Assembly (NCBI GenBank): GCA_042091695.1
Contig: JBELHA010000002.1
Span: forward strand, 18,260-82,259
Length of the DNA stretch: 64,000 nucleotides
Direction: 5' to 3'
DNA from: Flavicella sp.
GTDB lineage: Bacteria; Bacteroidota; Bacteroidia; Flavobacteriales; Flavobacteriaceae
Below are positions 33,762 to 63,594 of the stretch, in pieces. The notes beneath the pieces were generated by a model. That model did no database searches, was not told the DNA's origin, and was given only the letters and a program-made list of their open reading frames with translations. The first letter of the stretch is position 1. Each line of letters begins with the position of its first letter. Both the position numbers and the translations under genes were made by a program.

Positions 33762-34802
33762 CTATACCGCTCTTTTAAGGGTAAACGTAAATTCAGTTCC
33801 CTCTCCATAAGTACTTTTTAAATCTATCGTCTCTTTATGAGCTTCAATGATGTGTTTTACAATAGACAAACCTAAACCGGAACCTCCTTGGTCTCTAGAC
33901 CTACTTTTATCTACCCTGTAAAATCGTTCAAAAATACGACTGACGTTTTCTTCTTTGATCCCTTCACCATTGTCTTTTACAGAGATTGAAATCTTATCAT
34001 TTTTTAGAGAATCGATACTCACCATGATAATGCCTCCATACTTTCCATACTTTATGGAGTTAACAATAAGGTTGATTAGTACTTGCTCAATTTTAGAAGC
34101 GTCCCCCATTACAAACTCAGGAAATTCATAGAATTTGTCAAAACGCAAGGTCATGTTTTTTTTCTTGACCTTCATCTCAAACATATCGAATACTTTCTGA
34201 ATTGTTTCGATGATATTAAAAGGTTGTATATTTATGTTTAAATCATTGTTTTCTAGTTTAGAAATCATGTCTAAATCCTGTACGATAGAAGCCAATCTCT
34301 CTACTCCTATATTTGCTCTTTCAAGGTACTTGCTTCTAATTTCGGCATCTTCAGCAGCGCCTTCAATCAATGTTAAAATATATCCTTGTACAGTAAATAA
34401 GGGGGTTTTCAATTCATGAGAGATATTCCCTAAAAATTCACGTCTGTAGGTTTCCCTTTCGTTCAAAGATTTTATTTCTAACTGTTTGTTCTCGGCAAAC
34501 TTTTGCATTTCTGCGGATAGAGATTCAATATCAGGTGTGATAGATCTTTTGTTCAGTTGGTTCAAATCCAAAAGCGATATATCTTTGTATATTTTGGATA
34601 CCCTTTTGTAAATGAATTGTTCAACTCTATTTTGAACAATGATAAAAACAAGTAAAAAACTACTAGGGATAAAAAACCACAATTGTGTAAAGTCGGTTTC
34701 TTTGTAGTGAAATTTTAGTACAATACCGAGCCAACCTGCTGTGAGCCCTGTTAATATAATTGATGTTACAAATGCAAAAGCATAGGTTTTTTTAATTTTC
34801 AT
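33762..34802 (-). CDS. phoR: Sensor histidine kinase, PhoR-like
   Basis: H-box EFLGNISHELKTPL; N-box NLIVNSIKY; G-boxes DNGEGI and FERFYRVDKSRSR..GGSGLGLSIVKH. PhoR assignment from sequence style and phosphate-transporter context. Confidence 0.8.
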   Translation of the reverse strand: MKIKKTYAFAFVTSIILTGLTAGWLGIVLKFHYKETDFTQLWFFIPSSFLLVFIIVQNRVEQFIYKRVSKIYKDISLLDLNQLNKRSITPDIESLSAEMQKFAENKQLEIKSLNERETYRREFLGNISHELKTPLFTVQGYILTLIEGAAEDAEIRSKYLERANIGVERLASIVQDLDMISKLENNDLNINIQPFNIIETIQKVFDMFEMKVKKKNMTLRFDKFYEFPEFVMGDASKIEQVLINLIVNSIKYGKYGGIIMVSIDSLKNDKISISVKDNGEGIKEENVSRIFERFYRVDKSRSRDQGGSGLGLSIVKHIIEAHKETIDLKSTYGEGTEFTFTLKRAV

Positions 34803-35484
34803 TCAACACAAATTTGTATCCAACTCCTTTGACCGTTTTAAAATGGTCGTCTCCGAGTTTCTCTCTTAATTTTCTGATATGCACGTCGATAGTTCTTCCT
34901 CCCACGACAACTTCATTACCCCATACTTTGTCTAAGATAGTTTCTCTCTTAAACACTTTTTCAGGTTTTGAAGCTAGTAGCGAAAAGAGTTCAAATTCCT
35001 TTCTAGGAAGTACTATTTTTTCCCCATCTTTCATAACCAAATACGCTTCACGGTCTATGGTGATATTACCAATCACAGTTTTGTCTACCTCTTCATTTTT
35101 CTCTTTGACACGACGTAATAAAGATTTTACCTTACTGACAAGTACTTTGGGTTTTACCGGCTTGGTAATATAATCATCTGCCCCGGCGTCAAATCCTGCT
35201 ACCTGAGAGTAGTCTTCACCTCTTGCAGTCAAGAACGATATGATAGTGTTTTCTAAGCCTTTTGTCGCTCTAATTTTTTCACAAGCTTCTATGCCATCCA
35301 TTTCAGGCATCATAATATCTAATAATATCAGATGAGGTTTGTGTTTGATTGCTTCTTCAATAGCCAACACTCCATTACTAGCGGTGAATATTTTATAACC
35401 TTCGTTTTTCAAATTGTATCCAACAATTTCTAAAATATCTGGTTCGTCATCTACTAATAAAATCTTTATATCGCTCGTATTCAT
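34792..35484 (-). CDS. phoB: OmpR/PhoB-family response regulator, PhoB/PhoP-like
   Basis: ILLVDDE; LDIMMP (phosphoacceptor Asp); FLTAR; GADDYITKP; winged-helix KEFEL...R..ILDKVWG...RTIDVHIRKLREK. Confidence 0.8.
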   Translation of the reverse strand: MNTSDIKILLVDDEPDILEIVGYNLKNEGYKIFTASNGVLAIEEAIKHKPHLILLDIMMPEMDGIEACEKIRATKGLENTIISFLTARGEDYSQVAGFDAGADDYITKPVKPKVLVSKVKSLLRRVKEKNEEVDKTVIGNITIDREAYLVMKDGEKIVLPRKEFELFSLLASKPEKVFKRETILDKVWGNEVVVGGRTIDVHIRKLREKLGDDHFKTVKGVGYKFVLNEN

Positions 35485-35507
35485 TGTGTTATGATTTTTT
35501 GGTCTAA

Positions 35508-35515
35508 CAAATCTA
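35508..35515 (-). promoter_or_regulatory. -7 promoter element for the response regulator/kinase operon
   Basis: TAGATTTG on the minus strand (CAAATCTA on +), ending 23 nt before the ATG. Confidence 0.6.
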
Positions 35516-35573
35516 GTAATTTCACAAGAGATGTTTGTTTCTTTTACAATGATTTAATCTTTCCCTGTAAAGT

Positions 35574-35640
35574 TAACAATTAATTTATATTGAAATAAAC
35601 TAAAGGTAACTTAGTTCGTGCGTTGTTTGACGATTTTTGC
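35574..35640 (+). promoter_or_regulatory. Putative Pho-box-type promoter of the TonB receptor
   Basis: TAACA/TTATA/TAAAC/TAACT at 35574, 35585, 35596, 35607 (11-bp pitch); GATTTTTGC starts 25 bp after the last core. Confidence 0.6.
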
Positions 35641-35661
35641 AGCTTGTAAATCAATCGAATT

Positions 35662-38430
35662 ATGAAGAATATTTTAAGTGCATTTTTGTTAGTAGTTTCC
35701 TTTTCTGTTTTTGCTCAAGAGAAAGCTGTTGTTTCAGGTAAAGTATCTGATAAAGAGATGAATAACGAATCTTTGCCATTTGCGAATGTATTTGTAAAAG
35801 GAACAACTGTTGGTACTACTACAGATTTTGATGGAAATTATACTTTGTATGTAAGCGAAGGTCCTGCAACTCTTGTTTTTAGTTTCGTTGGCTATGCAAC
35901 TATTGAAGTCCCTATGACTTTCGAAGCGGGTCAAAATTATACGATTAGTAAAGTTTTGGGTGCAAGTGAAGGTATTACTATGGATGAGGTTTTGGTGAAA
36001 GCTCAAGTTTCTCGTGAAAAAGAGACAGCTCTTTTGGCAGAACAAAAAAAAGCGGTTGTAATCAAGGAAAGTATTGGTGCTCAAAGACTTGCGAAGGTAG
36101 GTGTTTCTAATGCTGCTGGAGCAACAACAAAAATAGCAGGTGTTACAAAAAGTGAAAGTTCCTCTGCTGTCTTTATTAGAGGTTTAGGGGATCGTTACTT
36201 GTCAACAACTTTAAATGGTTTGCCAGTTCCTTCTGATGATGTTGAAAATAAAAATATAAATCTCAATTTATTTACAACTAGTATTATTAAAAATGTTGCT
36301 GTTTCAAAGACTTATTCTGCAACAGGTTATTCAGACCAAGCTTCGGGAACAGTTAATGTTGTTTCAAAAACATACACGAAAGATTTTTTTAAAATGAGTT
36401 TTTCTTCTGGGATGAATTCAAATTTATTTGGAACTGATTTTAGAGTTAGTGAAAATAACAGTGATTTAAAATTTGGTTTCTTCAACCGTAATGGTCCTGT
36501 AGCTGAAGGTATTCTTGGACAAGGTTGGGATACGCATTCAAAAGAAGTAATTCCTAACTTTAGTATGTCATTTACTGGAGGTAAAAAGTTTGTTTTATTT
36601 GATCGTGATTTTAATTTTTTTGGAACTATATCACATAATGCTTCTTCTGAATATCAATCAGGTATTTTTAAAAGTTTTAGAAATAACGTTGTAAACAATG
36701 ATTTCTCAGACACTGAAGTTTTTAGAGTGAAATCTAACACAACAGCTATGATAAATCTTGGTTCTAGAATAAGTGATGCTAGCAAGATCAATCTTACTTC
36801 TCTTTTTGTAAATAAAGCTAGTGATAATTTATTTGAAGCTGGAAGAAATGGTTTAGGTGAAGTTCGTGATCAAAGACCTCCTAGTCCAACTACAACTGAT
36901 GAATATGAAGATTTAGGTGCTTTCATTAGAGATCAAAACGTCAAACAGACATCTATGTTTGTCAACCAAATTTTGGGAGATCATCGTCTGTCAGATACTA
37001 ATAAATTGAAATGGGCATTAGGTTATAATGTTGTGTCATCTGAAGAGCCTAACAGGATTCGAAATCAAGTGACTATCTTAACACCAAGTACAGATGTTGA
37101 GATAATTAATGTTGGAGGGTTTGATCAACGAAAATCTTTTCAAACTGTCGAAGATGCTGAGCTTAATGCATACGTTCAGGATGAATTTGATTTTTCAGAT
37201 TATGATGTAGAGTCAATTTTTAAGTTGAATGTAGGGTTAAATTTTAGAAATAAATCTAGAGCTTTTGACTCTCAATTCATTGGTGCTAAGATTGTGAGGC
37301 CATTTATTGGATTTACAGTTTCTTCCGTGGACAACCTATCTGATACTTTCACACAAGAAAATTTAGACCGAGGCGTTTTTAAAATAGCTGAACGTTCTCC
37401 TGATGCATATGATGCGAATTTAGTTGCCTCAGCTGCTTATTTTGATATTGTGTTTTCTAAAGATAACTTTTCAGGTAATTTCGGTTTGCGATACGAGTTT
37501 GATCAAATTAATGTTGATTGGAATGTATCAAACTATGTTGGTCGTGTTGGTTCCACATCAAGAGAATACCACAATCTACTTCCAAGTTTAAATTTGAAGT
37601 ATGAATTAAATGAAACTAATTTTTTAAGGTTTGCAACAAGTATAACGACTACTTTGCCAGAATTTAAGGAACTTTCTCCATTTGCGTATGTTGCCCCTAA
37701 CGGTCGTGTTAGTTTAGGTAATCCTGATCTTGAAAAATCGGACAACTATAATTTTGATTTAAAATGGGAATTTTTTCCATCAGAAGGAGAGCTTTTTTCT
37801 TTAACTACGTTTTATAAGCTTATTAAGAATCCAATTAACTCTGCTATGACAAGAGGGTCAACAGGATACTTTACTTATGGAAATACAGGTGAAAAATCTA
37901 ATATTTATGGGCTTGAATTAGAGGGAAGATTTAATATATATGATACAAATGCTTCAAAGTTATCTACTAATTTCAATCTTACAAGAATGTGGTTTAGTCA
38001 AGACTTATTACCAGAATTTCAATACAATGGAAAAGTTGAGTCTGCTCTTCAAGGTGCCTCAGATTTTATTTTAAATTCTTCTCTAAGTTTTACAACCAAA
38101 AGTGTAGGAAAGTCCTTTACATCGACCTTGTCGGCTAACTTTTCATCTGATAAGATCGCGGTATTAGGTTCTCCTGAAGATTTTGATAATAGTTTACAGA
38201 ATTACAATAACGAAATAATCGAAGAGGGATTCTGGAATGTTGATTTTGTTCTGAGCCAAGAACTATCAGAAAGATTAAAAATAAAATTCATTGGTAGAAA
38301 TTTATTGAATCCAGATATCAACCAATCTCAATATGTGAGATATGTAATTAACACACCTGAGACAAAAGAAATTGTTCGTTCCTATAAGAAAGGGGTGCAG
38401 TTAAGTTTAGGACTATCTTACTCTTTCTAG
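35662..38430 (+). CDS. TonB-dependent receptor with CarboxypepD_reg-like N-domain (putatively phosphate-regulated)
   Basis: LPFANVFVKGTT.GTTTDFDGNY; plug FIRGLGDRYLSTTLNGLPVPS; GNP.L..SDNYNFDLKWEFFP; C-terminal SYSF. Confidence 0.9.
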   Translation: MKNILSAFLLVVSFSVFAQEKAVVSGKVSDKEMNNESLPFANVFVKGTTVGTTTDFDGNYTLYVSEGPATLVFSFVGYATIEVPMTFEAGQNYTISKVLGASEGITMDEVLVKAQVSREKETALLAEQKKAVVIKESIGAQRLAKVGVSNAAGATTKIAGVTKSESSSAVFIRGLGDRYLSTTLNGLPVPSDDVENKNINLNLFTTSIIKNVAVSKTYSATGYSDQASGTVNVVSKTYTKDFFKMSFSSGMNSNLFGTDFRVSENNSDLKFGFFNRNGPVAEGILGQGWDTHSKEVIPNFSMSFTGGKKFVLFDRDFNFFGTISHNASSEYQSGIFKSFRNNVVNNDFSDTEVFRVKSNTTAMINLGSRISDASKINLTSLFVNKASDNLFEAGRNGLGEVRDQRPPSPTTTDEYEDLGAFIRDQNVKQTSMFVNQILGDHRLSDTNKLKWALGYNVVSSEEPNRIRNQVTILTPSTDVEIINVGGFDQRKSFQTVEDAELNAYVQDEFDFSDYDVESIFKLNVGLNFRNKSRAFDSQFIGAKIVRPFIGFTVSSVDNLSDTFTQENLDRGVFKIAERSPDAYDANLVASAAYFDIVFSKDNFSGNFGLRYEFDQINVDWNVSNYVGRVGSTSREYHNLLPSLNLKYELNETNFLRFATSITTTLPEFKELSPFAYVAPNGRVSLGNPDLEKSDNYNFDLKWEFFPSEGELFSLTTFYKLIKNPINSAMTRGSTGYFTYGNTGEKSNIYGLELEGRFNIYDTNASKLSTNFNLTRMWFSQDLLPEFQYNGKVESALQGASDFILNSSLSFTTKSVGKSFTSTLSANFSSDKIAVLGSPEDFDNSLQNYNNEIIEEGFWNVDFVLSQELSERLKIKFIGRNLLNPDINQSQYVRYVINTPETKEIVRSYKKGVQLSLGLSYSF

Positions 38431-38456
38431 CGTTTAACTATTTATTAATATCCATT

Positions 38457-38488
38457 AAACCTGTATATGTCTCATATACAGGTTTTTT
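38457..38488 (+). terminator. Rho-independent terminator after the TonB receptor
   Basis: AAACCTGTATATG-TCT-CATATACAGGTTT followed by T tail. Confidence 0.85.
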
Positions 38489-38524
38489 ACGTTTAAAATC
38501 TTATTCTAAAAACGATGTTTTTTA

Positions 38525-38580
38525 TAACCTTGTTTTAACATTGACATAATGTCATTTTTGAGATGTTTCTGCATATTTGC
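38525..38580 (+). promoter_or_regulatory. Putative Pho-box-type promoter of the lipoprotein
   Basis: TAACC/TAACA/TAATG at 38525, 38536, 38547; CATATTTGC starts 25 bp after the last core. Confidence 0.65.
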
Positions 38581-38612
38581 ATAAAAATTTATATACTTAA
38601 TACTATTTTACA

Positions 38613-40565
38613 ATGAAAAAATTTGCATTTAAAACTTTGGCTATCGTGTCGGTTTTCGCTTCAACTCTATTTGTTAGTTGTTCACAAAATGATGATGATG
38701 GTGGATCTGACATCGTAACTCCTGGACAAGAAGTTTTGTCAGGTGATTTAACAGTAAACACAACTTTAGACGCTTCTATTGCATACAGGTTAGAAGGTGC
38801 TTTACGTGTTCAAAATGGAGTAACACTTACAATTCCTGCTGGAACTACAATTACAGCTGATGCTGCTGCAGCTGGAGCTGATGCAACAGAAGTATATATT
38901 GCGATTTTGCAAGGTGCCAAGATAGATGTTCAAGGGGTTCCTTCAAACCCTGTAATTATGACTTCAACAGATGGTGAGCCAGGTGACTGGGGTGGTTTGA
39001 CAATTTGTGGTTATGCTTCCTCTACTGCAGGTACTGATGTAAAGGCAGAGGTTGGGAACTTTAACTATGGTGGTTCTAACGATTCAGATAATTCAGGTTC
39101 TATCAAGAACTTAGTTGTCAGAGGTACTGGTGCTCAGATTGATTCTGAATCTCAATACAATGGTATTTCTTTTTACTCTGTAGGTTCTGAAACAGTTGTT
39201 GAAAATATTGCTGTTATTGATGGTGCTGATGATGGAGTTGAGTTTTACGGAGGTTCAGTTTCTGTTAAAAACTTATACCTTGAAAATAACCAAGATGATT
39301 CAATTGATTGGACTGAAGGTTGGAACGGAACTGTTGAGAATGCATATGTTGCTCATACAATTGCTGGTTTTTCTACTGTAGTAGAGGGTGATAAAGATAA
39401 TAACAATCCTAAGTTTATCAACTTAACTGCTGTTTCTTCTGTTGGTGGTACTGCATTGCAATTCAAGAAAGAATCTGGTGCTACTATTACAGGATTGTCC
39501 CTGTCAGGTTATTCTAAGAATATCGATATGAAAGATGGTGGAGCCTTGTCTAATGTTCAGATTGCAGGAGAAGATGCTCAAGTTGGTTTTTCATATGCTG
39601 CTCCTGCTACTGTAGACCCATCTGACTGGGAATTTGTTACTGCAATTTCTACTGCTGTTGTTTTGAATGGTGATGTTGAATCAGATGTTACTTTAGATGC
39701 TGCTTTATCTTACAACCTTACAGGTGCTTATATTGTAAAGTCAGGTGCAACTTTGACAATTCCTGCAGGAACTAAGATTACTGCTGAAGCTGGTGGAACT
39801 GAAGTTTACATAGCTGTATTGCAAGGAGGTAAAATTGACATTCAAGGTACTGCTGATAATCCAGTTGTAATTTCTTCAGCTAATGGATCACCATCTGATT
39901 GGGGTGGATTGACTATCTGTGGATATGCTACTTCAACTGCTGGAGTTGATGTTAAAGCAGAAGTAGGTAACTTTAACTATGGTGGTTCTAACGATACTGA
40001 TGATTCAGGATCAATTAAATACTTAGTTATCAAAGGAACAGGAGCACAAATTGATTCAGAGTCTCAATACAATGGTATTTCTTTTTACTCTGTAGGTTCT
40101 GAAACAGTTGTTGAAAATATTGCAGTAATCGACGGAGCGGATGACGGTGTTGAGTTTTACGGTGGTTCAGTTTCTGTAAAGAATTTATATTTGGAAAACA
40201 ATAACGATGATTCAATCGACTGGACAGAAGGTTGGAATGGCGGTGTAGATAATGCCTATGTTTCTCATACAATTGCTGGGTTCTCTACAGTATTAGAAGG
40301 TGATAAAGATAACAATAATCCTACTTTTACGAATTTGACTGCTGTATCTACAGTAGGTGGAACTGCATTACAATTCAAAAAAGAGTCTGGTGCAACAATT
40401 ACAGGATTGTCCCTGTCAGGTTATTCTAAGAATATCGATATGAAAGACGGAGGTGCTTTGTCAAATGTAAAAATTGAAGGTGCTGATGCGGATACTTCTG
40501 CAGACTACGATGCTGCTGCTACTGTTGATGTTTCAACTTGGTCTTGGATCTCTGCTACTTTATAG
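38613..40565 (+). CDS. Outer-membrane lipoprotein made of two tandem ~300-aa acidic beta-helix-like domains
   Basis: Lipobox LFVSC; each half carries G.WGGLTICG, DDGVEFYGGSV and DDSIDWTEGW.G. Confidence 0.8.
   Translation: MKKFAFKTLAIVSVFASTLFVSCSQNDDDGGSDIVTPGQEVLSGDLTVNTTLDASIAYRLEGALRVQNGVTLTIPAGTTITADAAAAGADATEVYIAILQGAKIDVQGVPSNPVIMTSTDGEPGDWGGLTICGYASSTAGTDVKAEVGNFNYGGSNDSDNSGSIKNLVVRGTGAQIDSESQYNGISFYSVGSETVVENIAVIDGADDGVEFYGGSVSVKNLYLENNQDDSIDWTEGWNGTVENAYVAHTIAGFSTVVEGDKDNNNPKFINLTAVSSVGGTALQFKKESGATITGLSLSGYSKNIDMKDGGALSNVQIAGEDAQVGFSYAAPATVDPSDWEFVTAISTAVVLNGDVESDVTLDAALSYNLTGAYIVKSGATLTIPAGTKITAEAGGTEVYIAVLQGGKIDIQGTADNPVVISSANGSPSDWGGLTICGYATSTAGVDVKAEVGNFNYGGSNDTDDSGSIKYLVIKGTGAQIDSESQYNGISFYSVGSETVVENIAVIDGADDGVEFYGGSVSVKNLYLENNNDDSIDWTEGWNGGVDNAYVSHTIAGFSTVLEGDKDNNNPTFTNLTAVSTVGGTALQFKKESGATITGLSLSGYSKNIDMKDGGALSNVKIEGADADTSADYDAAATVDVSTWSWISATL
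38730..40520 (+). repeat. Intragenic tandem duplication, 912-bp offset (outer bounds approximate)
   Basis: Identical tracts 39150-39211 = 40062-40123 (62 bp) and 39486-39535 = 40398-40447 (50 bp). Confidence 0.92.
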
Positions 40566-40588
40566 TACAAAAACATATAAATTATAGT

Positions 40589-40618
40589 AAAGGTCACCTT
40601 CGGGTGACCTTTTTTTTT
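40589..40618 (+). terminator. Rho-independent terminator with C(UUCG)G tetraloop
   Basis: AAAGGTCACC-TTCG-GGTGACCTTT followed by a T run. Confidence 0.93.
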
Positions 40619-40932
40619 GCTTTAGTGTAACCAGTAAATAACATACAAGAGAATTATAAATTGTATTTATTATGTGTATATAGGGATATTCAGAATTTTT
40701 AAAATTCAAGTTTAGCTATTCTCAATCGTTTATTAATTCTCTTATTTATTTGTCACTAAAGACTGTGTTTTGTCATTTTTTTTGTTGCTTTAGTGGTTTT
40801 TCGTTTGGTTATTAGCGGTTTAGCTTCGTGTTGGTACTATCTGTGTTATTATTTGAGCTATTTATAGCTCAACTTAGGGTGTTGATTTAGTTTTTTTGTA
40901 ATTCAAATATTTTTTAATTCAAGAAAACTCTT

Positions 40933-43900
40933 ATGAATAAAATTTCACTACTTAGTTTGTTGGGCTTTTTTCTGTTTACTTTGTCAGTAAATAGTCAAAC
41001 ACTTCCACAAGATTTAGAATTGACCTGTACTACAGGATATACCCAAACTGGTGTTTTTGAAGATGATTTCGAATACCTATCTGGAGATGCAATTAAAGCC
41101 GCAGGTTGGTCGGGAGACATCAGTCAAAAAAACGCTCCTTATAGACCAGGTAATGGTAAATGGGGTATATCTTTTGGTGCCCATCCAAATACATCATATA
41201 AAGAAAGTGCTACTGCAGGAACTGGGCCAGATGAGTCCTATGATGGAAACTATTTCTTGATGTTCGAGGCTAATGGTAGTAATAATGAAGCAGAAATTAT
41301 AAGTCCATCAATTGATTTATCATCCGCGTCTTTTGTGGATTCAGATGCTTTATTGGAGTTCAAAATGTTTGCCTTTGGTAGAGATATGGGGAAGCTTGAG
41401 GTGTTTGCCTCTAATAATAAAAACAGTTTCACAGGGGATGCTTTGTTTGTCCATGAAGGTGCCCACCAACAAACAAGTACTGTGGCATCATCCCCTTGGG
41501 TGAATGTTCGCGTAAGCTTGAAAGATTTTGTGGGAGGGTCAGTGTTTATTAAATTAAAATATAATGCTCTCGAGGCTGATACGGCCAATCTTGGAGATAT
41601 GTGTATAGATGGACTAAAAGTATTAGCTTGTGTCGATACTACAGTTTGTTTGGCTGGACCAGTTTCGTTTGAAAATGAAACTATCTCTTCAGTTGATGTG
41701 ACTTATTATCCAAGAGTTGGTGAGACAAAATGGGAGTACTTGCATCAAAAAGCAGGTTTGCCTGCACCTCTAGAAAGTGATTCAGGTATTGTTGAGGATG
41801 GTGTATATGATATTACGATTCAGAACTTAGACCATACTACTTCATACGATGTGTATCTTCGTTCTTATTGTGAATCTATTGGAACGGTTAGTGATTGGAG
41901 TTCTCCGCAATCATTTACAACTCCTATTTCTTATACCAACACTGTAACATGTGGAGAAGATTATAGATCTAGTTTCTGTTACAGTACAATAAATACCGAT
42001 GATGCAAAAACAGAAACCTATACTTTCGTTTCTAGTGATGCTGCTAATGGTGGTGCTATAAGTCTTTTTATCAATGAAGGAAGGTTGGCTGATAATTCTT
42101 TTACAAATAATGACCCAGTGATTCTTGTTACGGATGGTAATGGTACAGTTTTGTATAATGGTAATGGGGTAAGAGAAAGAAAGTATTATTCGCTTAAGGG
42201 GATGTCTTTTTATTCCTCTACAGGTACGATTACATTTCAATTAGAAAATTTAGACACAGATGCTTCTTGTGCAAATAATGATGATTTTGATCAGTTGAAG
42301 CCTATAGATTATACGATTAAATGTTTGGCTTGCGATGCGCCTCCAGTAGTGGATTATAAGTTACACTTCCCGGAAGATTGTGTTACATCTAGCGAATATT
42401 ATGTAGATGTAGAAGTGAAAAATATGAACGGTGCTTCTAATATTTACTTTACCAACGATTACAATAATGTTTCAAAGGAGAGTAGTTCTTTAGGTGTTAC
42501 AAGGGTAGGACCGTTTCCTTTCAATAAGGAGGTAGAAGTATATGTTGCATCTAACAGTGTCGATTCAGGTTGTGTTACACAGCGTATGTTCAATATAGAT
42601 ACCTGTCCTCCATCAAATGATGACATTGAAAATGCTATAGAGTTATCAATATCGCCTTATGGTTCAACTTCATCAGAAATCGATTGGAAATATGCTTCGC
42701 TAGAACATGCAACTGCTTCTGAGGGGGCTTCAATTCCAGTTCCTTCTTGTAACGCAGTTGGGGCTACCAATGATATTTGGTTTAAGATTACGGCACAACA
42801 CCCATTGTATACTTTTGCTCCTTATGTAAGACAAAATTCGAAAGAGGGTATGTATGGAAGTGCTAAAGATTATATTGACCATGTCATGTACGAAAAACTT
42901 CCTGATGGTAGTTTAAAAGAGTTGTTTTGTTACCAAAGTTTTTCTGACTTTGCAACTACAACACCTAGTACAGTAACTCCTGTATTGACAATTGGGCATG
43001 AATATTATTTCAGGGTGTTTTCTCAATCTGATGATTTCACTGATGTAGATATGCGTTTTACCTTATTTGATGCATCTTCGAAATTGCCAGGTACCTGTAA
43101 TGGGGGCGAAGCTCTTTGTTTTGATGCTGAAGGTGTTGCCTACTCAACTCCTATGATCAATTTCCCAAACCGATTGGTACCGAATACTAGCTGTTCACTC
43201 GAATGGATGGCCAATACATCATGGCCTACTTTTGAGGTTGCTGAAGACGGAGTGCTTGAATTTGACTTAGAAATGGTCAATATTGCAACGGATCCAATTG
43301 ATGTTGCTTTGTATGGTCCTTTTACAGATCAAGATGAATATTGTTCTGAAATCTACCAACACAGAGCTATCGACTGTTCTGACAGTTCAGCAGCTGTGGA
43401 TAGATTATCCGTACCCAATGCAAAAAAAGGAGAAAAGTATGCCTTCTTAATTGTAAACCGTAGTGGTGAAAGTGAATTATTGAAATTTACTCAGACCAAT
43501 ATGGGTGAAGATGGCGCGGCTACATTGGCAGGTTTTAGTCCAAATGTACCTCAGATTTCTCCAGACCCTGTTTGTTCATCGAACAGTACTGAAATGGTTG
43601 CTTTGTCTGACTATGATGCCTCTTTAAAAGATGGAGTGGATTCTTATACTGTAAGTTACTATGCTACAGAAGCGCTAGAAACAGAAATAACAGAGGTTCA
43701 AGTAAATGAAGGAACAGCAACAAAGGTATATGCTCAAGTAATTAGTGAATATGGTTGTACTTCTTCTACATCATTTGATTTGTATATGACGACACCTCCG
43801 TTAGTTAATACGATAGTGCCTACAATTGATTGTTCAATTATGAATTTCGACCTTACGAGTTTAGTCGATGAAATTACAGGAGGTCAATCAGGATTAGAAG

Positions 43901-44886
43901 TTCAGTTTTTTGTAACTCAAGACGCTGCTGATTTAGGGGAAAACCCAATTGACACTAATTTTATAAATGAAGGAGTGTCTACCCAGGTATATGCTAGAGT
44001 ACAATTTAGTCAATACAATTATTGCTATGCAACTACTGCCGTTACTTTGGACTTTAAAGTAGCTCCGTTTGCTGAACTTACAGCAGATAAAGCGGTGTTT
44101 GAAGCTTGTGAAGCAGAACCGTTGACACTGTCTCTTGAGAATGCTAATTTTGAAGCTACAGCAGTTGGAATTACTTGGTACAAAGACGGATCAATTATTG
44201 AAAACGAGGACAGTACTTCTTTGATTGTAACTTCTTTTGGTTACTATAAAGCAAAAGTAACTAGTAATGAATCAGCTTGTGAGTTTGAGACCGAACAAGA
44301 ATTAGTGTCACTTAAAGATTGTGCCGCTCCTGTTGGACCTACTGCTCCTGGTGAATTACAGGTTACTGAGGTTTCTGATACTTCTGCAACTGCAACCTGG
44401 ACTGCTTCTACTGATGAAGATGGTGTGGCTGAATACAAACTCTATTTAAACGATGAGTTGGAGAGTACAATAACAGAACTTACTTATGCTCTAGAAGGTT
44501 TGTCTGCGAATACTGCTTACACTTTTAAAGTAGTTCCTTACGATGTCAATGGTACAGTAGGGACTTCCTCACAAGTGATTTTTATTACAGAGGCTGCGGA
44601 CGCTGGTGATGGTGACGGTGATGGTTCACTACCATCTGGTGTTACCAATAAAAATTATAACAATGATAAAATAGTGTCAAAAATAGTTACCCTAGCTAAT
44701 CCACTAAGAATAGATGCTAACGGAGTATCTCTAACTGTATTCAACAGAAATGGACAGACTATCATTTCAAGAAGTAACTATAACAACGATTGGAATGCTT
44801 CAGAGTTGTCCTCGGGAACCTATTTTTATGTGATTACCTACAGTGATAATACTACAAAAGCAGGTACCATATTTATTAAAAAGTAA
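40933..44886 (+). CDS. Large T9SS type B (CHU_C-like CTD) secreted adhesin-like protein with MAM, Fn3, CUB-like and Ig-like modules
   Basis: Signal peptide; MAM-like GPDESYDGNYFLMFEA...SPSIDL...MGKLEV...DMCID; Fn3 modules LDHTTSYDVYLRSYC and LSANTAYTFKV; PPSNDD..NAI.L; C-terminal VFNRNG...YNNDWN...LSSGTYFYVI; followed by porP/sprF. Confidence 0.8.
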   Translation: MNKISLLSLLGFFLFTLSVNSQTLPQDLELTCTTGYTQTGVFEDDFEYLSGDAIKAAGWSGDISQKNAPYRPGNGKWGISFGAHPNTSYKESATAGTGPDESYDGNYFLMFEANGSNNEAEIISPSIDLSSASFVDSDALLEFKMFAFGRDMGKLEVFASNNKNSFTGDALFVHEGAHQQTSTVASSPWVNVRVSLKDFVGGSVFIKLKYNALEADTANLGDMCIDGLKVLACVDTTVCLAGPVSFENETISSVDVTYYPRVGETKWEYLHQKAGLPAPLESDSGIVEDGVYDITIQNLDHTTSYDVYLRSYCESIGTVSDWSSPQSFTTPISYTNTVTCGEDYRSSFCYSTINTDDAKTETYTFVSSDAANGGAISLFINEGRLADNSFTNNDPVILVTDGNGTVLYNGNGVRERKYYSLKGMSFYSSTGTITFQLENLDTDASCANNDDFDQLKPIDYTIKCLACDAPPVVDYKLHFPEDCVTSSEYYVDVEVKNMNGASNIYFTNDYNNVSKESSSLGVTRVGPFPFNKEVEVYVASNSVDSGCVTQRMFNIDTCPPSNDDIENAIELSISPYGSTSSEIDWKYASLEHATASEGASIPVPSCNAVGATNDIWFKITAQHPLYTFAPYVRQNSKEGMYGSAKDYIDHVMYEKLPDGSLKELFCYQSFSDFATTTPSTVTPVLTIGHEYYFRVFSQSDDFTDVDMRFTLFDASSKLPGTCNGGEALCFDAEGVAYSTPMINFPNRLVPNTSCSLEWMANTSWPTFEVAEDGVLEFDLEMVNIATDPIDVALYGPFTDQDEYCSEIYQHRAIDCSDSSAAVDRLSVPNAKKGEKYAFLIVNRSGESELLKFTQTNMGEDGAATLAGFSPNVPQISPDPVCSSNSTEMVALSDYDASLKDGVDSYTVSYYATEALETEITEVQVNEGTATKVYAQVISEYGCTSSTSFDLYMTTPPLVNTIVPTIDCSIMNFDLTSLVDEITGGQSGLEVQFFVTQDAADLGENPIDTNFINEGVSTQVYARVQFSQYNYCYATTAVTLDFKVAPFAELTADKAVFEACEAEPLTLSLENANFEATAVGITWYKDGSIIENEDSTSLIVTSFGYYKAKVTSNESACEFETEQELVSLKDCAAPVGPTAPGELQVTEVSDTSATATWTASTDEDGVAEYKLYLNDELESTITELTYALEGLSANTAYTFKVVPYDVNGTVGTSSQVIFITEAADAGDGDGDGSLPSGVTNKNYNNDKIVSKIVTLANPLRIDANGVSLTVFNRNGQTIISRSNYNNDWNASELSSGTYFYVITYSDNTTKAGTIFIKK

Positions 44887-44895
44887 CATACTACA

Positions 44896-45774
44896 ATGAA
44901 GAATTTATATATTTTAATAGCACTTGTTTTTACGATAAAAACAAGTGCTCAAACAGAACCTCAGTACACACAATACATGTACAATATGAGTTTATTAAAC
45001 CCTGCTTATGCAGCCTCTAAAGACTATACTTCTTTGGGTTTCATTTACAGAAATCAATGGGCTGGATTAGAAGGAGCTCCTAAAACTATGAACTTATTTG
45101 GGCAAACTAAGTTTTCAAATAATTTAGGACTTGGCGGTTCTATTATTTCCGATCAAATTGGAACTGAAAACAAAACCTTTATTCAAGTAGATGCTTCATA
45201 TCCATTACAAATTGCGGAGAATCAATTTATCTCTTTAGGATTGAAAGCAGGACTAAGTATGCATTCTATAAACTTGTCAGATATAGATACTTCTTTAGGA
45301 AATACAAACGCAACTTCTCCTACTGTAGGTGTTGGTTTCTTGTATTATAGTTCAAGTTTTTATGTCGGTGCCTCTATTCCTAATGTTTTGGAAACGAAAC
45401 AAACGACAGATACTGGAGAAGAGATCACTATCGAGAACAAAGATTTCTATGCCATGGCAGGATATGTATTTGATTTGAATTCAGTTTTAAAGTTAAAACC
45501 AAATCTTTTAATTAGAGCTACTGGAGAAGATCCAATTACAATCAATATAGGAAGCAACGTTTTAATTCATAACAAGTATGAGTTTGGTATTGGATACAGA
45601 TTAGATGAATCCTTTTCAGGGTTATTTAATATACCTGTTACTTCTAACTTGCGTTTGGGGTATTCTTATGATTTCGTAACTACTTCTATTAGTGATTTTG
45701 CACCAGCATCTCACGAATTTGTTGTTTTGTATAATTTCAACACAACATCTGAGACAGTAAATAGATTTTTCTAA
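44896..45774 (+). CDS. Type IX secretion system membrane protein, PorP/SprF family
   Basis: AQTEPQYTQYMYN...NPAYA; YRNQW.GLEGAPKT; LRLGYSYD; SHEF...Y.F. Confidence 0.93.
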   Translation: MKNLYILIALVFTIKTSAQTEPQYTQYMYNMSLLNPAYAASKDYTSLGFIYRNQWAGLEGAPKTMNLFGQTKFSNNLGLGGSIISDQIGTENKTFIQVDASYPLQIAENQFISLGLKAGLSMHSINLSDIDTSLGNTNATSPTVGVGFLYYSSSFYVGASIPNVLETKQTTDTGEEITIENKDFYAMAGYVFDLNSVLKLKPNLLIRATGEDPITINIGSNVLIHNKYEFGIGYRLDESFSGLFNIPVTSNLRLGYSYDFVTTSISDFAPASHEFVVLYNFNTTSETVNRFF

Positions 45775-45798
45775 CAGTATTGCCTATAAATATTATAT

Positions 45799-49917: not shown

Positions 49918-49921
49918 AAAC

Positions 49922-50911
49922 ATGAAAAAAATATTTTTATTATTTTGTTTTTTCGCAGTTATTTCCTGTGGAAGTGATGGTCCAGAACAACCAATAACAG
50001 GAGGAAATAACCTCTCGGAGGTTAAGAACCTACAAATTATAGAGCTGACTCAAAATTCAGTTTCTTTCAGCTGGGAGGCTCCGACAGATGTAGAAAACGT
50101 CTCCTATTATGAAGTTTATTTGGACGCTGTATTACAAGAGTCTATTACTAATTTGACCTATACTTTTGAAAATTTGTCATCAAATACGGCATATACTTTC
50201 AAAATAATTCCAGTAGACCTACAAGATAGCGAAGGGAAGGAAAGAGAGATTACTTTTACAACCATGGAAGGTTCAGGTCCAATCAGTGACAAAATGACGA
50301 ATCTTACCTATCCTTTGAACAATGAAAGTTGTAACGAAGGGGTAACGAATGCTGATGATGCTTCGAAATCTGATATTACGTTTGAGTGGGAATCTAGTGC
50401 AGATGCAATATCTTATGAGTTAGTTTTAAATGATGTGACAAATAAAACAATTCAAAGGTATACAAGTACTGAGAAAAGTTTAGCTGCTACAATTTATAAA
50501 GGGGCCACGTATTCGTGGTTTATCATTACTAGCTTTACTTCGCAAGATAACACAGGCGCAACCACAACCACTACCGAGGTCAGTGATACTCACTATTTTT
50601 ATAGTTTGGGTGAGGCATTTGAATCTTATGTTCCATATCCATCACGTCTTACTTCTCCTGCAAACTCCTCTGTCCTTAAGAATAAGGAAACAGTACAGTT
50701 GAGTTGGAGTGGTTCACATCCTGATGGTGACATTGTATCCTATGAAGTTTATTTTGGTACTTCTACAGTACCTGAATTATACGAGACGACATCGTCTCAA
50801 ACTCTTACAGTTTCTTTGGAGCCAAATACGACTTATTATTGGAGTATTGTAGCAATCGATGCAAACGGGAACTCTTCAACTTCTCAGTTGTTTGGTTTTA
50901 TATCGGAGTAA
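49922..50911 (+). CDS. Fibronectin type III / SusE-like lipoprotein
   Basis: Lipobox AVISC; Fn3 motif LSSNTAYTFKI; LEPNTTYYWSIVAID. Confidence 0.75.
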   Translation: MKKIFLLFCFFAVISCGSDGPEQPITGGNNLSEVKNLQIIELTQNSVSFSWEAPTDVENVSYYEVYLDAVLQESITNLTYTFENLSSNTAYTFKIIPVDLQDSEGKEREITFTTMEGSGPISDKMTNLTYPLNNESCNEGVTNADDASKSDITFEWESSADAISYELVLNDVTNKTIQRYTSTEKSLAATIYKGATYSWFIITSFTSQDNTGATTTTTEVSDTHYFYSLGEAFESYVPYPSRLTSPANSSVLKNKETVQLSWSGSHPDGDIVSYEVYFGTSTVPELYETTSSQTLTVSLEPNTTYYWSIVAIDANGNSSTSQLFGFISE

Positions 50912-50930
50912 GCATACGTAATAAAGTAAC

Positions 50931-50962
50931 AAAAAGAGGTTCTTCACAGGACCTCTTTTTTT
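50931..50962 (+). terminator. Rho-independent terminator closing the T9SS module
   Basis: AAAAAGAGGT...ACCTCTTTTT followed by T tail. Confidence 0.85.
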
Positions 50963-50989
50963 GTACCCTGAAGAATCTATTAAATTTAT

Positions 50990-51034
50990 TAACATTTACA
51001 TAACATAGCAGCCTTGATTAATTAGGATATTTGC
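50990..51034 (+). promoter_or_regulatory. Putative Pho-box-type promoter of the phosphate transporter
   Basis: Perfect TAACA-N6-TAACA (50990, 51001); GATATTTGC starts 25 bp after the last core. Confidence 0.7.
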
Positions 51035-51067
51035 AATCAATTTAAATGTGTCAATTCTTTTTGATCT

Positions 51068-53341
51068 ATGGATAATATTTATGTTTTAATGATTGTAGCA
51101 CTGGCGCTCTTAGCCATTGCTGACTTGATAGTAGGGGTGAGTAACGATGCTGTGAATTTTTTAAATTCTGCCATTGGTTCCAAAGCAATATCTTTCAAAA
51201 CAATTATGATTGTTGCAAGTATTGGAGTTCTTGTTGGTGCCGTTTTTTCAAGTGGAATGATGGAAGTAGCTAGAAAAGGTATTTTCAATCCAAACGAATT
51301 CTACTTCAACGAAATTATGATTATTTTTATGGCAGTAATGATTACAGACATACTACTGCTCGATTTTTTCAACACCATTGGAATGCCAACTTCCACAACC
51401 GTTTCCATAGTTTTTGAATTGTTAGGAGCGGCTGTAGCTATGGCTTTGATAAAAATATACAATACTTCTGGTTCTAATGATATAAATACGCTTGTAAACT
51501 ATATAAATACAGAGCAAGCCACCAAGATTATTTTTGGTATTGTACTCTCTGTATTGGTTGCCTTTTCAATAGGCGCCCTTGTTCAATGGGTGGCTCGTTT
51601 ATTATTGTCCTACAATGTGGAGTCAAAAGCCTCTTGGATTGGAGCTCTTTTTGGTGGGGTAGCATTGACAGCGATTACTTACTTTATTTTTATGAAAGGT
51701 TTGAAAGGTACCAACTATGCCAACCAACCTTTTGAAGTACTCGGAGGAACCATCAAAGACTTTTTAGAGAAAAATGTATTGATGATTGTTGTAGTAAGTT
51801 CTGTTATTTGGTCTTTGGTATCTTATACCTTGATAGAATTTTTTAAAGTAAATATATATAGAATAGTTATTGTTGTCGGAACCTTCGCCTTGGCATTGGC
51901 TTTTGCTGGAAACGATCTTGTAAACTTTATAGGTGTACCTATTGCTGCTTGGGAATCTTATTTGGCTTGGACTGCCTCTGGTATTCCTGCAGAGGAATTT
52001 AGCATGGCTATCCTATCAAAAAAGGTACCTACAAACAATGTATTGCTTGTCTTTGCTGGAATTGTCATGGTTGCTACCTTATGGTTTTCATCAAAAGCTA
52101 AAAATGTTGTAAAAACATCTATCGATTTGTCTAGTCAATCAGCTACCAAAGAACGTTTTCAGCCAAACTTTTTATCAAGAGGTTTTGTGCGATTTGCAAT
52201 GTTGACATCTCAAGGTTTTTCTTATTTATTGCCAACTACTTTAAAATCTAAAATAGACAAACAGTTTACAACACCTGTGATCGCTTTGTCCAAAGAGAAA
52301 GTTCACGAACTACCTGCCTTTGATATGGTAAGAGCAGCAGTAAACTTAATGGTTGCTGCAGTTTTAATATCGATTGCAACTTCTCACAAATTGCCTTTAT
52401 CTACGACCTATGTTACTTTTATGGTGGCTATGGGAACTTCTCTTGCGGATCGTGCTTGGGGAGCGGAAAGTGCTGTGTATAGAGTTGCAGGGGTGTTGAG
52501 CGTGATTGGAGGATGGTTTTTTACTGCCTTTACTGCTTTTACTGCAGCTGCATTTGTAGCTTTTTTACTGAGTTTGAATCTTGAACTTATGTTCCCTTTG
52601 TTGCTTTTATTAGCGATCGCCCTTTTGTATAGAAATTTTATAGCACACAAGAAAAAAGCACTGGAAGAAAAAGTAGAAGACAGCTTGAGTAAAGCAGAAA
52701 GTACTTCTGTACAGGGTGTGATTCAGGAAAGTGCTGCAACCATTGCTTCTGTATTGAAAAGAGGAAATAAAATCTATTCAAATGCAATCAAAGGTTTGGC
52801 AAAACAAGATTTAGTCCTTTTGAAAAAGAACAAAAAAAGCGTTGAGAAACTAGCGACTGAAATAGATGAATTACGGGATAATATTTTTTACTTTATCAAA
52901 AATCTTGACGACTCTAGTTTGACCGCAAGTAATTTTTATATCAATATTTTGAGTTTGTTACAAGACATGACGCAATCGTTAGACTTTATTGTAAAAGCGA
53001 CTAATAAACACGTCAATAATAATCATAAGAATTTAAAAATCAGTCAGATCAAGGAATTGCGCGAAGTGGAAGACCTATTGGCTGTAATGTTGGATGATTC
53101 TCAAGAAGCTTTTAACAATATTTCTATTGAAAGTATTGCAGATATATTGAATAATAAAGAAATTTTCACAGTATTGTCTGAAAAAATCCAAAAACAAATT
53201 GAACGTACGCGTACCGATGAAAGCAGTCCAAAGAATACAACCTTGTATTTCGGGTTACTTTTAGAAACCAAAGATTTGGTGACCAGTGCCATGAATTTAT
53301 TACAAGAATATTACGGTGCCAATCAAACGACTAAAATATAA
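51068..53341 (+). CDS. Inorganic phosphate transporter (PiT/PHO4 family) with C-terminal PhoU-like helical domain
   Basis: PiT signatures GVSNDAVNF and AGNDLVNF; GMPTSTT and KLPLSTT; about 200-aa soluble helical C-terminus (KELREV...SPKNTTLYF.LLLE). Confidence 0.88.
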   Translation: MDNIYVLMIVALALLAIADLIVGVSNDAVNFLNSAIGSKAISFKTIMIVASIGVLVGAVFSSGMMEVARKGIFNPNEFYFNEIMIIFMAVMITDILLLDFFNTIGMPTSTTVSIVFELLGAAVAMALIKIYNTSGSNDINTLVNYINTEQATKIIFGIVLSVLVAFSIGALVQWVARLLLSYNVESKASWIGALFGGVALTAITYFIFMKGLKGTNYANQPFEVLGGTIKDFLEKNVLMIVVVSSVIWSLVSYTLIEFFKVNIYRIVIVVGTFALALAFAGNDLVNFIGVPIAAWESYLAWTASGIPAEEFSMAILSKKVPTNNVLLVFAGIVMVATLWFSSKAKNVVKTSIDLSSQSATKERFQPNFLSRGFVRFAMLTSQGFSYLLPTTLKSKIDKQFTTPVIALSKEKVHELPAFDMVRAAVNLMVAAVLISIATSHKLPLSTTYVTFMVAMGTSLADRAWGAESAVYRVAGVLSVIGGWFFTAFTAFTAAAFVAFLLSLNLELMFPLLLLLAIALLYRNFIAHKKKALEEKVEDSLSKAESTSVQGVIQESAATIASVLKRGNKIYSNAIKGLAKQDLVLLKKNKKSVEKLATEIDELRDNIFYFIKNLDDSSLTASNFYINILSLLQDMTQSLDFIVKATNKHVNNNHKNLKISQIKELREVEDLLAVMLDDSQEAFNNISIESIADILNNKEIFTVLSEKIQKQIERTRTDESSPKNTTLYFGLLLETKDLVTSAMNLLQEYYGANQTTKI

Positions 53342-53363: not shown

Positions 53364-53397
53364 ACAAAGCCTATGATATCTTCATAGGCTTTGTTGT
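53364..53397 (+). terminator. Hairpin / probable terminator after the transporter
   Basis: ACAAAGCCTATGA-TATCT-TCATAGGCTTTGT; short T tail. Confidence 0.7.
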
Positions 53398-59699: not shown

Positions 59700-59716
59700 T
59701 ATTTTATCATTTTAAC

Positions 59717-59755
59717 AAAAAAGACGTCATTATTATTATAATGGCGTTTTTTTTT
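59717..59755 (+). terminator. Rho-independent terminator after pgi
   Basis: ACGTCATTAT-TATT-ATAATGGCGT (one G-U pair) followed by a T run. Confidence 0.8.
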
Positions 59756-59895
59756 AGTCAAAATGTTAACTATTGTTAATTTAGTTAACATTAAATTTAC
59801 ATTAAAGGGTTAATGTATAGTTTATGTTAAGTGAGGGGGGTGTTTTTTTTTTGAATAGTTAAGATTCTCTTAAAGTAGTTAAAGAGATGTTAATG

Positions 59896-59903
59896 TAATT
59901 TTG
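59896..59903 (+). promoter_or_regulatory. -7 promoter element for the TonB receptor, preceded by GTTAA repeats
   Basis: TAATTTTG(C); eight GTTAA copies between 59765 and 59893. Confidence 0.6.
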
Positions 59904-59934
59904 CAATACTAAATTTTAATATAAATAATTAAAA

Positions 59935-62493: not shown

Positions 62494-62508
62494 TAAAATA
62501 CTATAACA

Positions 62509-63594
62509 ATGAAAAATTTATTTTACACAATCGCACTTTTCTTTGCTGTATTGACTTCATGTGAGTCACCTATGGCAGATATTTACGATGCAATCGACAA
62601 CCCTGTTGACACAGCTGGTAATTTATTACCTAACAAAATTGTTGGACAAACAAGCTATACTTTAACAGAGGAAGATTACACTGATGAATTGGACTTTAAC
62701 TATCCAAACTTTTCATCAACTGATCAAGCTAAAGAATTAATTCCAGGTTTCTTAACTTCAAAATTTCCTGTATGGGGGATGGGGTCATTGGCTGAGATTA
62801 CTTATGATATTTATAACAGAATCCCTTCTGTTGATGCTACGCCTTTTGATGTAGATGCGTCAGAATATGAGCCTATCACAGGGAATTCATATGGTAACTT
62901 TAGTAGTACTAATCATGTTACTGAATATGCTGCTTTAAAGTATCCAGACGCTCAAGATGGAGATTTCTATGCTTTTAACTGTAAATACTATGCTGGTTCG
63001 GTTTCTGATAGAATCTACGGTGTATTGATGCACAATGGTGCTTGGGTTGCTGTACAAGGATTCGATGCTGATGCATATACTGCAATGGGTGAGTCTTTTC
63101 CTAACCTTTCATCAACTGATGAGGCTGAAGAAAAACTTCCAATCTTCCTAAAAGACTATAACAAGTACAATACTGTTAAAGTTGGAGAGCCTTTGATGTA
63201 TGTTTATGAAACTCGTTTCGATGCACATTTAATTGCTTTCGTATATGATGGTATAAACTACACTTTGTATGAAAATATCTTGTCTGAAACTTTACAATTC
63301 GGTCACGATGGTTCAACTTGGGTTCCTGATAATACTGTTAAGTATATTTTAACTGCTGCTGATTTTGCTTTGGTAGGAAATGACCGTTACGGTAACTTTG
63401 ATGTTCGTCCAGGTAAAGATGAAGAACCAATTTCAGTTCGTATCGAAAAAATAAACACAATTTTGACAAATAACTTCCCTGATTTGGCTGTTGAAGGTCA
63501 GAAGTTTGTTGTTGATTACAACGTTTACAACGGATCCGCCGCTGTTTACACAATAGCTTTGATACATGATGGAACAAGTTTTGTTCAACAATAA
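62509..63594 (+). CDS. Outer-membrane lipoprotein partner of the TonB receptor, with internal repeats
   Basis: Lipobox VLTSC; repeated PN(F/L)SSTD.A...P.FL and Y.LT..D(Y/F) modules. Confidence 0.75.
   Translation: MKNLFYTIALFFAVLTSCESPMADIYDAIDNPVDTAGNLLPNKIVGQTSYTLTEEDYTDELDFNYPNFSSTDQAKELIPGFLTSKFPVWGMGSLAEITYDIYNRIPSVDATPFDVDASEYEPITGNSYGNFSSTNHVTEYAALKYPDAQDGDFYAFNCKYYAGSVSDRIYGVLMHNGAWVAVQGFDADAYTAMGESFPNLSSTDEAEEKLPIFLKDYNKYNTVKVGEPLMYVYETRFDAHLIAFVYDGINYTLYENILSETLQFGHDGSTWVPDNTVKYILTAADFALVGNDRYGNFDVRPGKDEEPISVRIEKINTILTNNFPDLAVEGQKFVVDYNVYNGSAAVYTIALIHDGTSFVQQ

Follow-up and report, generated by a model that had tools for sequence, protein, structure and literature searches.

Introduction

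The closest published counterpart of the locus described here is the inorganic phosphate (Pi)-sensitive PUSIV/Pus4 'phoBR cluster' of Flavobacterium johnsoniae, which spans Fjoh_0541-0549 (Lidbury et al., 2021; PMC8115612). It encodes a glycosyltransferase (Fjoh_0541; pf04101, a 'lipid remodelling, PhoBR operon' gene in Table 1 of that study), OprP (Fjoh_0542), PhoR (Fjoh_0543), PhoB (Fjoh_0544), a TonB-dependent transporter (TBDT; Fjoh_0545; pf07715, pf13715, pf14905) and the lipoprotein 'FII', which has a pectin-lyase fold (Fjoh_0546). On Pi depletion Fjoh_0541 and Fjoh_0544-0546 are strongly induced, the glycosyltransferase, TBDT and FII by 5 to 10 log2 units, and PhoR barely; FII is, furthermore, abundant in the exoproteome (PMC8115612). 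A recent preprint describes Pus3 and Pus4 as still functionally unpredictable (Connolly et al., 2026). In another, BT4055 and BT4056 are treated as a TBDT and its 'lid', a pair conserved in 621 genera; BT4056 shares 40% identity with Fjoh_0546 and has a distant relative in Caulobacter ElpS (Price; 10.1101/2023.03.17.533168). ElpS is itself a surface lipoprotein induced by Pi starvation, encoded beside a secretion system and freed from the cell by a protease that depends on type II secretion (Le Blastier, 2010; PMC2996285). Here we analyse a Flavicella sp. locus with the same core, located on contig JBELHA010000002.1 of assembly GCA_042091695.1 (positions 18,260 to 82,259, a stretch of 64,000 nt hereafter called the window), in which the lipoprotein gene and a gene for a PiT transporter fused to PhoU flank four genes related to the type IX secretion system (T9SS).

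We put the probability at roughly 0.78 that a phosphate-starvation cluster conserved in Bacteroidota is present here in the form it takes in the Flavicella lineage, and that its T9SS operon is a later passenger insertion. An initial annotation of the window had seen in it the best candidate for an undescribed system, one that had gained a secreted adhesin/protease arm. The first part of that claim is not supported by the literature, the core corresponding gene for gene to PUSIV/Pus4 and to a BT4055/BT4056-type pair, nor is the second by the narrow distribution and insulation of the T9SS module set out below. On our reading, what looks like a 'Pho system with a T9SS arm' is a false lead, namely a known and conserved Pho cluster that carries a lineage-specific insertion.

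Gene content and synteny of the core cluster

Nine long open reading frames (ORFs) were confirmed between 33762 and 53341, with the orientations given in the initial annotation: a PhoRB-like two-component system (TCS) runs divergently from the TBDT and lipoprotein genes. The conserved unit begins one gene further left, with a PF04101 glycosyltransferase (Table 1), and the core order is glycosyltransferase, PhoR/PhoB, TBDT, β-helix surface lipoprotein and PiT-PhoU, the histidine kinase (HK) and response regulator (RR) genes overlapping by 11 nt. Three traits that mark PUSIV/Pus4 are found here, namely divergent PhoR/PhoB and TBDT genes, a β-helix lipoprotein and a PF04101 glycosyltransferase next to phoR, the latter corresponding to Fjoh_0541 by Pfam family and position.

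The arrangement of glycosyltransferase-HK-RR and TBDT-lipoprotein-(OprP)-PiT recurs in nine of the nine genus-level loci that lie on sufficiently long contigs. The glycosyltransferase stands at the matching position in six genus relatives without the T9SS genes, and is partial at a contig end in G012, a Flavicella sp. metagenome-assembled genome (MAG; locus L037) that represents a sister species. DNA of the present genome and of G012 differs by ~22-30%, and their HK, RR and PiT proteins are 92%, 98% and 93% identical, respectively. A close metagenomic relative, L009, has the gene order of the window (Bac_transf, purD, HK, RR, TBDT, Beta_helix_4, Porin_O_P, PHO4, exonuclease), but with a porin in the place of the four T9SS genes. 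Whether the lipoprotein gene normally abuts the transporter gene, a point that the initial annotation had left to synteny, can be answered in the affirmative: the gap between them is 0.3-2 kb in nine genus genomes, and 10.5 kb only in the present genome and G012. Further afield, among 80 named Bacteroidota genomes (the top 80 carrying the lipoprotein, all two- or three-repeat marine forms), the TBDT gene adjoins the lipoprotein gene in 77, and PiT, RR and OprP genes lie within 10 kb of it in 32, 32 and 21.

The 'duplicated lipoprotein' of the initial annotation proved to be one protein of 650 aa; the duplication is real, and takes the form of an internal tandem repeat whose halves are 77.5% identical. 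The lipobox cysteine, Cys23, is followed by SQNDDD. Because sequence searches of the PDB with the lipoprotein and with PiT returned no matches, we relied on predicted folds for both. The AlphaFold2 (AF2) model of the lipoprotein comprises two right-handed β-helices (mean predicted local distance difference test score, pLDDT, of 86.3), for which Foldseek retrieved only generic β-helix enzymes (PL6, GH55, PL3) with weak E-values; relatives of the protein carry the precomputed Pfam label PF28492, Beta_helix_4. Across Flavobacteriaceae, and even within a genus, members of this family differ in their number of tandem repeats, proteins of ~400, ~650 and ~980 aa carrying one, two and three, respectively; the repeat number is evolutionarily labile.

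As for the TCS, the best NCBIfam matches of the HK are PnpS and PhoR, all under their curated cut-offs, and no PAS domain was found in it by Pfam. No protein in the whole assembly (2.73 Mb in 136 contigs) matches the Bacteroidota PhoB model (NF053854) better than the RR does, and the sole other OmpR-type RR, on contig C8, adjoins idi and queD-like genes. Judged by sequence, the pair is the best PhoBR candidate in the genome, in line with the phosphate-type (Pho) locus proposed initially.

A candidate Pho box at three core promoters

The repeat geometry that the initial annotation had recognised at three promoters proved real: at each of them, two TAACAT-like hexamers 11 bp apart are followed, after exactly 23 nt, by the TTTG of a Bacteroidota -7 element. 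Written as TAAHHT-n5-TAAYDT-n23-TTTG, this pattern has three matches in the window (35596, 38536 and 50990) against 0.01 expected, a count reached by none of 100 shuffles, and no more than six in the whole genome. The box of the TBDT promoter is kept with its spacing in G012, L009 and a third relative (G005), and that of the PiT promoter hardly varies within the genus and can still be recognised in other genera, Polaribacter among them. Weaker box-like repeats also occur in the divergent control region, at 35544-35560 and 35574-35590.

As an independent test, we applied the window-derived pattern to the 79 other named genomes (3.0 Mb, both strands). Here 38 of the 39 strict matches fall in the 310 nt upstream of TBDT (20/69), PiT (13/32) or OprP (5/21) genes, over a background of 0.004 per region of that length. 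With direct repeats of 11-bp period, held at a fixed distance from the core promoter and conserved upstream of Pi-uptake genes, TAACAT-n5-TAACAT is a good candidate for a Flavobacteriaceae Pho box. It fits an OmpR/PhoB-type activator site because of its period, its position and the set of genes that it precedes, and may be bound by the PhoB-like regulator. We found no description of a Bacteroidota or Flavobacteriaceae Pho box in the literature searched; this cross-genus-validated, sequence-defined candidate could serve in predicting the Pho regulons of marine Bacteroidota.

Besides the three core promoters, two matches in the genome retain the spacing from box to TTTG (contigs C131 and C4). 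These and the other high-scoring matches precede a purM-like gene, a dehydrogenase gene and small ORFs, none of them evidently linked to phosphate. Elsewhere in the window, 59700-63998 holds a second TBDT gene (59935-62493), a gene for a 361-aa protein without a family match and a DUF7800 (PhoD-like N-terminal) gene. Upstream of this second TBDT lies a box-like TAACAT-n5-TTACAT at ~59783, which in G012 is a perfect TAACGT-n5-TAACAT, though the distance to the -7 box is ~100 nt. Over the 80 nt that precede the start codon the two species show 100% identity, in genomes only ~78% identical.

The PiT-PhoU transporter and phosphate transport

Also borne out is the PiT-PhoU-like fusion. The protein scores 103.6 bits on PF01384 (cut-off 33.7), and the membrane part of its model (pLDDT 76.6) matches the Thermotoga maritima PiT structure 6L85 with a Foldseek E-value of 2e-8 and a TM-score of 0.73. 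Its tail, taken in isolation, scores 25.8 bits on the Pfam PhoU family PF01895 (cut-off 23.5), and Foldseek aligns the last ~210 residues to crystal structures of complete PhoU proteins (S. pneumoniae, A. aeolicus, P. aeruginosa) with TM-scores of 0.75-0.78. Throughout Flavobacteriales this transporter normally occurs in the fused form, with full-length matches down to 43% identity. Clustered at 50% identity, the tail family falls into 476 clusters; in full-length members the tail occupies residues ~530-748. Between helices of the tail, residues 648-660 (window 53000-53060) form a strongly conserved H-V-N-N-N-H-K loop in which N651, H653 and Q660 are invariant in 31 sequences, and which may be a ligand or metal site.

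The genome has no PHO4 gene besides this one and no PhoU-like domain besides its tail, and no match to PstB in it reached the cut-off. The initial annotation had noted that flavobacteria often lack PstSCAB; in keeping with this, pstS is reported from only 26 of 102 Flavobacterium strains, and many flavobacteria are without Pst. The PhoU tail probably gates transport by PiT, and it may report Pi status, standing in for PhoU in signalling to PhoR. A bolder proposal would make PiT-PhoU the phosphate sensor of Pst-less Flavobacteriia, the tail relaying flux or cytoplasmic Pi to a PAS-less PhoR and PhoB acting through the TAACAT-n5-TAACAT box; we regard this as tentative, and rather doubtful in its full extent. 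If true, Pho signalling would here run through PiT, in the place that PstSCAB-PhoU holds elsewhere. A PhoU that occurs only fused to PiT, alongside neither Pst nor a free PhoU, offers a concrete handle on phosphate sensing in these bacteria.

A T9SS operon at the oprP site of relatives

The four co-oriented T9SS-related genes of the initial annotation (40933-50911) are tightly packed, with internal gaps of 4-24 bp, and therefore form one operon. We searched for orthologues of this module in 40 relatives (12 other genomes of the genus and 28 more distant ones). G012 has the identical arrangement with all four genes intact, so that two of 13 genus genomes carry the module, none of the 28 distant ones does, and the single carrier among the 80 named genomes is again G012. 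At the site of the module, a gene for an OprP phosphate porin is present in seven relatives; a tblastn search with one of these porins gave no match in the whole assembly, nor in the G012 contig. Immediately 3' of the lipoprotein terminator stands a box that can be aligned with half-sites one and two of the OprP promoters in two relatives (G006 and G007), at equal distance from the terminator. It has neither the third half-site nor the -7 box, is deleted in G012, and is the probable remnant of an ancestral OprP promoter, which we read as the left-hand scar of a replacement of oprP.

The TBDT gene, the lipoprotein gene, the last module gene and the PiT gene each end in a terminator hairpin of about -15 kcal/mol. 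The 170-bp region upstream of the module is well conserved with G012 and contains no TAACAT repeat. The T9SS operon is a lineage-specific insertion, gained in an ancestor that this genome shares with a single sister species, and most likely an independent transcription unit that displaced oprP, a passenger functionally unrelated to the Pho cluster.

The module begins with a 1317-aa adhesin-like cargo whose C-terminal domain (CTD) is of type B (CHU_C, 38.3 bits against a cut-off of 27; TIGR04131, 21.2 against 35 and thus below it) and whose N-terminal 1100 aa match no family; its sole full-length orthologue among the 40 relatives is that of G012, at about 64-65% identity. The PorP/SprF protein, 85% identical to its G012 counterpart, is presumably the cognate partner of this cargo. 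The reprolysin-like protease (70% identical in G012) ends in a type-A CTD scoring 36.6 bits on TIGR04183 (cut-off 23), and the closing lipoprotein is 60% identical in G012. The likely -7 element of the module is closely followed by a perfect 16-bp palindrome, GAGCTATTTATAGCTC, which is kept in G012 and could be an operator or a leader hairpin; because it is unique in the genome, no regulon can be inferred from it.

A second copy of the adhesin/PorP/protease module occurs in the assembly on contig C94 (4466 bp; C51 was noted as well), with 90% DNA identity to the G012 module and only 63-85% protein identity to the window copy. We rejected this copy as a paralogue; it probably stems from a third population, similar to G012, and was mis-binned. 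Contig C1 (~83655-86836, minus strand) encodes a reprolysin paralogue of 1094 aa, which shares 31% identity with the protease of the window; 224 nt upstream of it, an AT-rich sequence loosely fits the box pattern, probably by chance.

Table 1. Features of the Flavicella sp. locus, in window coordinates.
Feature	Position	Strand	Basis or remarks
Glycosyltransferase, PF04101	32646..33761	+	Pfam; convergent with HK gene; conserved neighbour of the TCS
PhoR-like histidine kinase, 346 aa	33762..34802	-	HisKA + HATPase_c; two N-terminal transmembrane helices
PhoB-like OmpR-family response regulator, 230 aa	34792..35484	-	Pfam/NCBIfam
Divergent control region	35544..35639	+	box TAAACT-n5-TAACTT at 35596-35612, 23 nt, -7 TTTG at 35636-35639
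TBDT, 922 aa, non-SusC type	35662..38430	+	CarbopepD_reg_2 + Plug + OMP_b-brl_3 (PF13715 + PF07715 + PF14905)
Intrinsic terminator after TBDT gene	38457..38485	+	13-pair stem and T run; dG -15.2 kcal/mol
Lipoprotein promoter	38525..38579	+	half-sites TAACCT, TAACAT, TAATGT at 11-bp spacing, 23 nt, TTTG at 38576-38579
Surface lipoprotein, 650 aa, two tandem right-handed β-helix domains (Beta_helix_4 family)	38613..40565	+	AF2, Foldseek, Pfam label
Intrinsic terminator after lipoprotein gene	40589..40612	+	dG -15.7 kcal/mol
Probable relic box TAACCA-n5-TAACAT	40628..40644	+	position weight matrix (PWM) score 14.9; no -7 element at +23; directly after lipoprotein terminator
Module's own promoter/leader	40760..40932	+	conserved with G012; palindrome GAGCTATTTATAGCTC at 40855-40870; no Pho-type box
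T9SS cargo, 1317 aa, fn3 + type-B (CHU_C) CTD	40933..44886	+	Pfam/NCBIfam
PorP/SprF-family outer-membrane protein	44896..45774	+	PF11751 242 bits; TIGR03519 259.6 bits, cut-off 90.55
Reprolysin-like (M12B) metalloprotease, 1372 aa	45799..49917	+	P-domain, thrombospondin type-3 repeats, type-A T9SS CTD
fn3 lipoprotein, 329 aa, last module gene	49922..50911	+	60% identical in G012
Terminator hairpin and T run after module	50931..50963	+	dG -15.6 kcal/mol; equivalent hairpin in G012
PiT promoter	50990..51033	+	TAACAT-n5-TAACAT, 23 nt, TTTG of GATATTTGCA -7 box
PiT (PHO4) transporter, 757 aa, with complete C-terminal PhoU fold (~residues 545-757)	51068..53341	+	
Terminator after PiT gene	53364..53394	+	hairpin, about -15 kcal/mol

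Alternative readings

Several points weigh against the reading as a Pho cluster with a passenger insertion. The HK scores 234.6 bits on the PhoR model TIGR02966 (cut-off 334.2), and the RR scores 207.5 on TIGR02154 (cut-off 296.2) and 201.8 on NF053854 (cut-off 270); we call it PhoB-like and not PhoB because these scores lie below the curated cut-offs. Lipoprotein promoters of other genera rarely hold the box geometry (0 of 73 strict, 4 of 73 relaxed), and genome-wide scans with the pattern and with a 20-site PWM yielded no further obviously phosphorus-related targets and no wider regulon. The assembly is 92% complete, so that gene absences are not absolute. The proteins of the window are matched to those of F. 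johnsoniae by Pfam architecture and gene order, and Pi-dependent induction would be a property transferred from that species. Lastly, the T9SS module is intact at its site in two species that are well separated at the DNA level, and F. johnsoniae PUSIII contains a Pi-induced protein with a T9SS secretion domain together with an outer-membrane protease (PMC8115612).

This last pair of points belongs to the alternative that fares best, in which the whole locus would be one integrated PhoBR-controlled system and the T9SS module would have been recruited as its secreted arm, for instance to degrade or tether phosphorus-rich polymers. Its position between two box-bearing units, preserved in both species, and the box-like repeat upstream of the module in this genome could be read in that way. 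That repeat, however, has no -7 element at the conserved distance, is missing from G012 and resembles the relic of an OprP promoter; the module is flanked by strong terminators on either side and has its own conserved promoter; domain family searches found no phosphatase, nuclease or phosphate-binding domain in its four proteins; and 79 of the 80 other core-bearing genomes do without it. We consider functional recruitment unlikely.

It is less probable again that the TCS is no Pho regulator at all, acting instead as a substrate-specific sensor for the TBDT and lipoprotein, with the TAACAT repeat as its operator and no relation to Pi status. The sub-threshold PhoR and PhoB scores would suit such a sensor, as would an HK without a PAS domain, the point of contact for PhoU in E. 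coli, and the near lack of PhoR induction in F. johnsoniae. Against this, the same box is found at the promoter of the sole Pi transporter and at OprP promoters in many genera, even where no TCS is adjacent; the RR is the more PhoB-like of only two OmpR-type regulators in the genome; and the gene-for-gene equivalent cluster of F. johnsoniae is induced by Pi starvation (PMC8115612). Least probable of the three, by a small step, is a coupling without co-regulation, in which the T9SS-secreted reprolysin would clip the β-helix lipoprotein off the surface as described for the homologous ElpS, an idea invited by the Caulobacter precedent, by the abundance of FII in the exoproteome and by the 5 kb that separate the protease and lipoprotein genes, but countered by relatives that release or express the lipoprotein without the module, by the reprolysin paralogue elsewhere in the genome, and by there being nothing specific that ties the protease to the lipoprotein.

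Proposed mechanism

Returning to the reading of a conserved Pho cluster interrupted by a passenger, a PAS-less PhoR-like kinase and a PhoB-like regulator, transcribed divergently from the TBDT gene, would control the core. The regulator would bind the TAACAT direct repeats with their 11-bp period, which would take the place of a -33 element and keep a constant distance of 23 nt to the -7 TTTG, and would thereby activate three separate units, encoding the TBDT, the β-helix surface-lipoprotein 'lid' and the inner-membrane PiT-PhoU transporter. TBDT and lid may then capture some phosphorus-containing substrate at the outer membrane, and PiT would import Pi, probably gated by its PhoU tail.

Comparison with known systems

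Compared with F. johnsoniae PUSIV/Pus4, the window shares the order of PF04101 glycosyltransferase, PhoR and PhoB, a TBDT with the same three Pfam domains, a pectin-lyase-type β-helix surface lipoprotein directly 3' of the TBDT, and the association with Pi transport, OprP and PitA being associated with the F. johnsoniae cluster. It differs in its two-repeat lipoprotein, in the T9SS operon that replaces OprP, and in having no CARDB lipoprotein of the Fjoh_0549 type. Like BT4055/BT4056, it pairs a non-SusC TBDT with a β-helix surface lipoprotein; unlike that pair, its lid is tandem-duplicated (relatives have one to three repeats), and a terminator and a separate promoter stand between the TBDT and lid genes. 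Homology of the lipoprotein to BT4056 and ElpS would follow through the chain of similarities in the literature.

The T9SS module, for its part, recalls the SprB-SprF-type cargo clusters of gliding flavobacteria, in which a large surface protein with a type-B CTD is directly followed by a PorP/SprF-family gene. Type-B cargo and PorP/SprF gene follow each other in the same way here, with an enzyme bearing a type-A CTD in the same operon; the cargo N-terminus, which belongs to no known family, and the position inside a Pho cluster set it apart.

The regulatory part resembles the enterobacterial PhoR-PhoB system and its Pho box in having an OmpR-family RR, direct repeats of 11-bp period in the upstream promoter element and a PhoU fold tied to a Pi transporter. 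Unlike in the enterobacterial PhoR-PhoB/PstSCAB-PhoU arrangement, however, neither Pst nor a free PhoU was found in this genome, PhoU is fused to PiT and PhoR lacks a PAS domain; moreover, the half-site is TAACAT rather than CTGTCAT, and the promoter is of the Bacteroidota -7 TAnnTTTG type. In B. subtilis (Pit-YkaA) and S. aureus (PitA-PitR) a PiT transporter is accompanied by a PhoU-like protein of its own gene, and the PhoU-like BT4638 of B. thetaiotaomicron (PDB 3L39) matches the PiT tail with a TM-score of 0.66. In contrast to Pit-YkaA and PitA-PitR, the window encodes PiT and the PhoU-like six-helix domain as one polypeptide.

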